Of a DNA stretch of 61,308 bases, positions 41,285-42,606 are shown piece by piece. The notes under the pieces were generated by a model. It ran no database searches, was not told the origin of the DNA, and saw nothing but the letters and a program-made list of their open reading frames with translations. Each line of letters opens with the position of its first letter. Within the stretch, counting starts at the first letter, position 1. Location: assembly GCA_023231475.1 (NCBI GenBank), contig JALJEE010002077.1:1-61308 (forward strand), in the 5' to 3' direction. The translations under genes were made by a program, and so were the position numbers. Source of the DNA: Seison nebaliae (taxonomy: Eukaryota).

Positions 41285-42606
41285 ATGCCCAACTTATGTT
41301 GTAAATCGGCGGAGGAGAAAGAGGCGCAACGAATACACAAAGAAATTGAGAAACAGTTGCGTCGAGATAAACGTGATCAGAGACGAGAACTAAAATTATT
41401 GCTGCTCGGAACGGGCGAGAGTGGCAAGAGCACTTTCATTAAACAAATGCGAATTATCCATGGAACTGGATTCAGTGATGATGACAAACGATCATTCATC
41501 AAACTCATTTATCAGAACATCTATTCCGCCATGAACGGAATGATACGAGCGATGGAATTGTTGCGCATCCCATACGAAGATAGCGAGAATGAAGTTCAAC
41601 TTTCAAAAATTATTTTTCTATTCATTTGTCTTTCTAGAGAGTATATGCCCCAATGTTGAAATCGATCGATCCCGAATTCATGATAACACTCGATGAACCA
41701 TATGTGAATGCTATACGTTCATTATGGAACGATCAAGGAGTAAAAGATTGTTATGATCGACGAAGAGAATATCAATTAACTGATTCGGCGAAATAGTTCT
41801 ACATTTTTTATACTTTCCATTCATTTTTATATTGTTATCTTCATTTATTTTAAGTTATCTGGATGATTTGGACCGTATTGCTGGTGTAAACAAAGATTTC
41901 TTACCAGATGAACAAGATGTTCTACGAGTTCGAGTTCCCACAACGGGAATCATCGAATATCCGTTTGTATTGGAAAACATCATTTTCCGAATGGTGGACG
42001 TAGGTGGTCAGAGATCTGAAAGAAGGAAATGGATTCATTGTTTCGAAAATGTCACGTCAATAATGTTCCTAGCTGCATTATCTGAATATGATCAAGTTTT
42101 GGTCGAATCAGATAACGAAGTTAGATTGTTTAATAGAATATTTGAATGACATTGTATTTGAATAGAATCGAATGGAAGAATCAAAAGCATTATTTAAGAC
42201 AATCATACTATATCCATGGTTCCAGAATTCATCGGTAATTTTATTTTTGAACAAGAAGGATCTGTTAGAAGATAAGATTATGCATTCACATCTAGTTGAT
42301 TATTTCCCTACATTCGACGGTTCATCTTTCTTCTTCTTTTTCTCATTTTAATTAATTTCTGATTTGTGTAGGACCGAAACGTGATTCACAAGCTGCTCGA
42401 GAATTCATTTTGAAGATGTATGTCGATTTGAATCCAGATAATGATAAAATAATTTATTCGCATTTCACTTGTGCTACAGGTTCATTTCATTCTCAATATT
42501 TTACTTATTCTATTTGTTAATAGATACTGAAAATATTCGCTTTGTATTCGCTGCTGTCAAAGATACAATTTTGCAAATTAATTTAAAAGAATATAATCTC
42601 GTTTAA
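41285..42606 (+). CDS. GNAQ: G protein alpha q/11 subunit; introns 41594-41637, 41796-41854, 42120-42165, 42320-42371, 42480-42523
   Basis: MPNLCC (palmitoylated CC), [42 protein letters not shown] and C-terminal LKEYNLV. Confidence 0.97.

Follow-up and report, generated by a model that had tools for sequence, protein, structure and literature searches.

GTT donors at old, shared intron positions in Seison nebaliae suggest inherited introns converted in place

All 30 predicted introns that we curated in a contig of Seison nebaliae, a very small marine animal related to the wheel animals, begin with GTT, and the five in its gene for G-alpha-q lie at positions shared with other animals, where the orthologous donors are GTA or GTG. 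A purine at +3 is the norm for animal donors; none of the 30 has one. We consider it very probable that these are old introns converted in place rather than inserted, and probable, with slightly less assurance, that the reader of the donor has changed. Our favored account as a whole, in which the spliceosome would read +3 U in GTT introns at old shared positions, most likely through a predicted change at the 5' end of U1, is one to which we give about even weight.

GTT introns in nine genes

The Seison evidence comes from one contig, JALJEE010002077.1, all 61,308 nt of which were analyzed (hereafter, the window). The curated set, 30 introns in nine genes, was picked with the GTT pattern already known, and was accompanied by two gene parses in which donors were limited to GT or GC, acceptors to AG, and +3 was unscored. 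The first and cruder parse placed GTT at 28 of 39 donors; its 11 other calls all had a G+C above 0.25, several being shadow genes on the wrong strand, and at a G+C of 0.25 or less all 18 calls were GTT. The second parse, which included a model of intron bodies whose training excluded bases +1 to +6, returned GTT at 29 of 29 donors, including 18 of 18 beyond its training set. One of its introns (4280-4185) is probably a false call, and its acceptor at 19063 is wrong.

Homology was brought in by scoring all frame-keeping GT/GC..AG options at 18 junctions of GNAQ, PRPS, HERC4 and ASAH1 against non-Seison orthologues. A GTT intron was best at 16 junctions, no intron at one, and GTC and GTT tied at one. 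The seven GNAQ and PRPS introns were clear winners, margins were narrow at three of the 16 (HERC4 junctions 2 and 3, ASAH1 junction 1), and at HERC4 junction 1 non-GTT donors scored as well or better. Reading frame and homology together suggest that the GTT stretches are excised as introns. The curated introns have GT..AG ends, restore the frame when removed, end in YAG in 27 of 30 cases and are 40-81 nt long (median 49.5). The best of four branch-point-like words tried occurred in 23 of 30, against 18.6 in shuffles, a count reached by 61 of 1000 shuffles. U12-type introns carry the donor motif RTATCCTT; with T at +3 in 30 of 30 and no extended motif, no U12-type match was present among the curated introns.

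The G-alpha-q gene (GNAQ, 41285..42606, forward strand) has an open frame of 360 amino acids and five introns, all GTT..AG. Four had been placed by a preliminary description, and we recovered them at the same positions and phases: intron 1 (41594..41637, 44 nt, phase 0 after ENE, GTTCAA), intron 2 (41796..41854, 59 nt, phase 2 in AKY, GTTCTA), intron 3 (42120..42165, 46 nt, phase 0 at DNE/NRM, GTTAGA) and intron 4 (42320..42371, 52 nt, phase 1 in FDG, GTTCAT). The fifth (42480..42523, 44 nt, phase 1 at CAT/D, GTTCAT), missing from that description, is added here. The exons are 100% identical to SNEBB_003494 (P0181), a database model with an added upstream exon; at 40957-41124 on the forward strand this model has an extra five-codon exon and a 151-nt GTT intron, and the resulting N-terminal extension is without counterpart in orthologues.

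PRPS has two introns on the reverse strand, one after coding base 122 (3415..3466, 52 nt, phase 2 in QETC, GTTTTC) and one after coding base 864 (2616..2672, 57 nt, phase 0 after KIQ, GTTTGT), again at the positions and phases described earlier. Its exons are 100% identical to SNEBB_003484, as those of HERC4 are to SNEBB_003489. An extra 45-nt intron in the database PRPS model was rejected, its inclusion lowering the orthologue score from 214 to 148; the in-frame stretch that it cuts (3519-3563, reverse strand) holds conserved residues and starts with the commonest donor hexamer, and the intron is either a prediction error or an exitron. An acid ceramidase gene (ASAH1-like, 4816..5322, reverse strand) contains GTT introns at 5322-5281, 5080-5010 and 4864-4816; the exact donor of the first is ambiguous, and all three open options are GTT. 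HERC4 (15929..19153, forward strand) has seven, at 15929-15978, 16160-16210, 16909-16968, 17303-17351, 17461-17509, 18999-19051 and 19105-19153, the first of them ambiguous by homology.

The remaining curated introns lie in a forward-strand gene without assigned family (170..215, 46 nt), a CAP-domain gene (28476..29335, forward strand; 28476-28537, 29143-29193 and 29286-29335), a protein kinase gene (31820..34007, reverse strand; 34007-33968, 33766-33686, 33512-33469, 33355-33296, 33056-33016 and 31872-31820), a 1135-aa gene with Cys/His-rich motifs that look zinc-finger-like by eye (34981..35408, reverse strand; 35408-35363 and 35028-34981) and an immunoglobulin-domain gene (58715..58761, forward strand, 47 nt). 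Seven more GTT candidates, fixed neither by blind parse nor by homology, stand outside the 30, and two of the seven permit other donors. Forward-strand candidates include two in the CAP-domain gene (27931-27977 and 29611-29661), one in an EF-hand gene (2220..2322, 103 nt) and two in a small gene (6373..6600), one starting at 6373 and the other at 6553-6600, where GTA and GTG options preserve the frame too.

One of the candidates outside the 30 (7431..11250, forward strand, 3820 nt) is a predicted GTT intron whose removal would place an Acetyltransf_18-like exon behind a GNAT exon in a 325-aa frame; the nearest Atlas cluster to the downstream exon is Acetyltransf_18 (score 0.94). If this prediction is correct, the GTT trait reaches beyond short introns. 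The GNAT gene that it appears to split spans 7097-11894 on the forward strand, and inside the intron, on the same strand, lies an intronless SacI-domain gene of 1094 aa (7861-11145), whose stop is about 100 nt upstream of the acceptor. Other long intronless genes encode a 1646-aa inositol-phosphatase-like protein (19543-24483, reverse strand) and a 467-aa forkhead protein (11995-13398, reverse strand), and these long genes adjoin genes with five to seven tiny introns. Two EF-hand genes and PRPS are packed closely within 1697-3588; the forward-strand EF-hand gene extends to 2510, which leaves about 10 nt to the stop of PRPS on the opposite strand. Neither parse gives a convincing gene in the roughly 10 kb between 43700 and 54300. 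A canonical GTAAGT in non-coding DNA after 43400 gives no hint of use as a donor.

Intron positions shared with other animals

Among 78 metagenome Gq-like loci examined, introns were found in two, most of the others being single-block matches. One of the two (L041) is bdelloid-like, matching a Didymodactylos protein at 49 of 51 residues, and the other (L050) is arthropod-like by eye. Placed by position and phase on one reference protein, L041 has Seison GNAQ introns 1, 2, 4 and 5, with donors GTAAAA, GTAAAA, GTGAAA and GTAAAT, and L050 has introns 3, 4 and 5, with donors GTAAGT, GTAAGA and GTATGT. Jointly they cover all five Seison sites with identical phase, so the GNAQ positions are not lineage-specific. 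The chance that five new insertions would all land on eight old sites among 1059 is 5 × 10−12. The two loci together have eight Gq donors, seven GTA and one GTG; seven of the eight are at sites shared with Seison, and none of these seven is GTT. A separate locus (L005, 6001-7059) on a 105-kb metagenome contig holds a Gq gene without introns, which may be a retrocopy or may belong to an animal with few introns.

The same borders recur as clusters of indels in a set of 119 Gq proteins from the database (10 at KY/Y, 3 at DNE/N and 7 at FD/G), and at the PRPS base 122 site insertions at residue 40/41 occur in 6 of 119 database proteins. We take human GNAQ to lack the CAT/D intron and human PRPS1 to have six introns. 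Gq is described as having seven exons with borders conserved since sponges and cnidarians (PMC5896119). The preliminary description had matched the introns to human GNAQ and PRPS1 exon structures. That match holds directly for PRPS1 c.864, where a human c.864+1 variant implies a donor at the PRPS intron 2 site (PMC13511699), and elsewhere it runs only via non-human orthologues and indel breakpoints; we found no published mention of a human PRPS1 c.122 intron.

With common positions and GTR at all eight donors of the two loci, the simplest reading is that old donors were replaced, and the proposal that ancestral GTR donors gave way individually to GTT is supported. The ancestral donors would have been GTR, and +3 U appears to be maintained by selection, which may stem from a changed spliceosome.

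How the donor may be read

Across the 30 donors, +3 is invariant (2 bits), +4 is C in 14, T in 10, A in 6 and G in none, and +5 is A in 13, G in 9, T in 5 and C in 3. Relative to intron-body composition, C is enriched at +4 (P = 1 × 10−6) and purine at +5 (22 of 30, P = 2 × 10−5), and there is no preference at +6 (16 of 30, P = 0.59). The introns use 18 different donor hexamers, the commonest being GTTCAT (5 of 30). Canonical U1 (ACUUAC) would pair with +3 in none of the 30, and exon ends offer no compensation for this mispairing, G standing at −1 in only 10 of 30. The wider motif, GTT(C/T)(A/G), is a poor match for canonical U1; we predict a changed U1 5' end. Measured against background, pairing improves most with A as the partner of +3, G of +4 and either U or C of +5, which gives a predicted pairing box of ACGAAC or AUGAAC in place of ACUUAC.

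In the mechanism that we propose, the U1 5' end would have acquired an A facing +3 and, probably, a G facing +4, the spliceosome would now read U at intron position +3, and inherited GTA and GTG donors would have been swapped one at a time; donors could first have passed through a weak phase that allowed the changed reader to become fixed. Whether U1 itself is the changed component we regard as close to an even question. The most far-reaching form of the proposal, a re-coded major spliceosome in which GUUYR is read by a U1 box of ACGAAC or AUGAAC, with essentially all inherited introns, short or long, individually converted in ancient positions, falls slightly below even in our estimation. The predicted box would combine changes known from two amoebae, the ACAAAC of Entamoeba (donor GUUUGU) and the ACGUAC of Mastigamoeba (+4 C). 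A search for snRNAs gave no Rfam matches within the window.

The strongest competitor, possible though clearly less likely, is that donors were converted in place but that the altered component acts after U1, be it the ACAGA box of U6, the m6A mark on that box or a protein (U1C, LUC7, SNRNP27K, METTL16 and PRP8 are examples), with U1 canonical or dispensable. U1 is unchanged in most lineages with atypical donors, among them 69 yeasts, Micromonas and Thecamonas, and +3 U can pair with an unchanged U6 (bioRxiv 10.1101/2022.06.08.495308). In Saccharomycotina the U1 and U6 boxes are invariant, and donor shifts follow METTL16 and SNRNP27K instead of snRNA sequence (PMC10581693); a review holds that U6 rather than U1 commits the donor (PMC11732430). 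The rarity of A at +4 (6 of 30) and the enrichment of G at +5 (9 of 30, P = 3 × 10−5) would also suit this explanation, and about 35% of metazoan BUSCO genes are missing in Seison (PMC8351084), which makes it plausible that splicing factors were lost. The cases compared, however, concern +4 and not an invariant +3, the enriched +4 C and +5 A clash with an unchanged U6 box, and Entamoeba, the lineage with fixed +3 U in the comparison, did change U1 (bioRxiv 10.1101/2022.06.08.495308).

Drift, loss and insertion as alternatives

A changed reader would be superfluous if T-rich short introns tolerated weak donors and mutation bias took +3 to T by drift. Intron bodies are 54% T, T follows 19 of the 32 GTs inside them, and GTA is generally depleted in exons (159 against 229 expected, z = −8.0), more so than GTT (z = −3.6). 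Exon counts of longer words were 17 against 17.9 expected for GTRAG and 5 against 12 for AGGTT. Yet T follows GT at 39-41% of background sites, the probability of 30 GTT in 30 is 8 × 10−9 at the intron-body T frequency of 0.537 and still 2 × 10−5 at 70% T, and positions +6 to +10 have only 16-20 T of 30. The 3.8-kb candidate intron is GTT too. The bdelloid-like locus bears on this directly: its introns are equally short and AT-rich, its similar-sized introns retain GTA, and with the four introns of a neighboring gene included only 1 of its 9 donors is GTT (2 of 9 on the other reading of an ambiguous donor), against 30 of 30 in Seison (Fisher P = 1.5 × 10−7 for the 1 of 9). Small size alone is thus insufficient for GTT, and we consider drift without a new requirement improbable.

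A survivor effect, in which introns that were GTT by chance were retained and others deleted with little conversion, seems to us marginally less probable still. Seison GNAQ lacks the LLLL/G intron present in L041 and has no intron at the IF/R border, an exon edge in database proteins, and three long genes of the window are intronless. Against these losses, GNAQ retains five of seven old intron sites, at which none of the seven orthologous donors is GTT; at the comparator frequency of about 1 in 9, survival alone would have left far fewer introns, and in Entamoeba off-consensus introns were not preferentially lost. Because Seison is also without some old introns, deletion of non-GTT introns may have played a part alongside replacement.

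The intron bodies show no sign of a repeat family. In an all-versus-all comparison of the 30, the top pairwise score of 34 was matched by 53 of 100 shuffles; the mean, 18.35, was slightly above the shuffled value of 17.85 ± 0.22 and was reached by 1 of 100 shuffles, an excess that we read as shared AT-rich tracts. BLAST matches outside each intron were AT-rich pieces of 14-22 nt only. Neither terminal inverted repeats nor target-site duplications rose above shuffles in the 30 introns, the longest inverted run being 4 nt and the longest in-register direct repeat 3 nt. The earlier observation that the bodies share no visible similarity therefore stands, as does its rejection of an introner burst.

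Sequencing runs X1-X3, of which X2 and X3 are one sample and X1 is probably DNA, contain a second Gq copy that is about 90% identical to the window over 41492-42044 (forward strand) at about one fifth of the depth. They also contain a contig identical to the window, maybe its source. The changes in the second copy are mostly T to C and A to G or C, which fits a second, GC-richer lineage; two diverged lineages have been described for Seison nebaliae (PMC8351084). Its introns at sites 1 and 2 differ in length from those of the window, and at intron 2 the alignment extends through +3 and then diverges, so that this one donor appears to have kept GTT despite a changed body.

GTT elements inserted either at new sites or on top of old introns would account for the uniform first three bases, the narrow range of lengths and the slight excess in mean similarity, but with all five GNAQ introns on old sites, bodies that share no sequence, terminal inverted repeat or target-site duplication, and a second Gq copy with other intron lengths at the identical two sites, an introner burst in this window is largely refuted and we regard it as very improbable.

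Comparison with known systems

Entamoeba offers a close likeness to the GTT donors of Seison, having near-universal +3 U in its GT-AG introns where GTR is the norm (Roy and Bowser, bioRxiv 10.1101/2022.06.08.495308). Its donors, GUUUGU, co-evolved with a U1 reading ACAAAC, whereas the Seison U1 change is predicted. The Entamoeba host is an amoeba with few introns, in which the donor follows a strict motif of six bases (GUUUGU in 88-89%) and the branch point is clear (bioRxiv 10.1101/2022.06.08.495308); in Seison the host is an animal, only +3 is fixed, +4 and +5 are soft, and no branch-point word rises clearly above shuffles. Massive intron loss is a trait of the Entamoeba type, and the Seison window has its 30 curated introns in nine genes plus several intronless genes, with five of seven old sites retained in GNAQ. 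Mastigamoeba balamuthi, a lineage that keeps many introns, resembles Seison in its preference for C at +4 and has a U1 of ACGUAC, but unlike Seison it retains a purine at +3 (bioRxiv 10.1101/2022.06.08.495308).

In Saccharomycotina, as in Seison, a donor position has shifted lineage-wide; there it is +4, which switches between A and U in association with METTL16 and SNRNP27K while the U1 and U6 boxes are unchanged, and in Seison it is +3 (PMC10581693). Fritillaria borealis is, like Seison, an animal with deviant intron ends, and its spliceosome has adapted; 95% of its introns escape GT/AG, with diverse ends and two U1 versions that have identical 5' ends (PMC13326754). Seison differs in retaining GT/AG, in its more uniform ends and in the old positions of its introns.

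In the openly accessible literature, bioRxiv supplements and a later Syndermata annotation paper aside, we came across no description of GTT donors, either for Seison or for another animal. In the accessible text of the Seison genome paper (PMC8351084) the word 'intron' occurs twice and 'splice' once, and neither 'donor' nor 'snRNA' occurs; its two supplements contain none of intron, splice or snRNA, and the accessible part of the Seison lamin paper (PMC10125929) gives no donor motif. Transformed donors are known already, and what appears to be new is the combination of an invariant +3 U with soft flanks, ancient positions and an animal host.

Work on donor transformation, and on the balance between loss of misfit introns and co-evolution of the machinery, has so far centered on yeasts and on protists with few introns. 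With its public genome, its RNA data and its two diverged lineages (PMC8351084), Seison makes the question directly testable. Annotation tools tuned to GTR will misread the Seison genome. More broadly, a change of +3 to U at ancient positions would demonstrate that introns can stay in place while their splice signal is replaced site by site.
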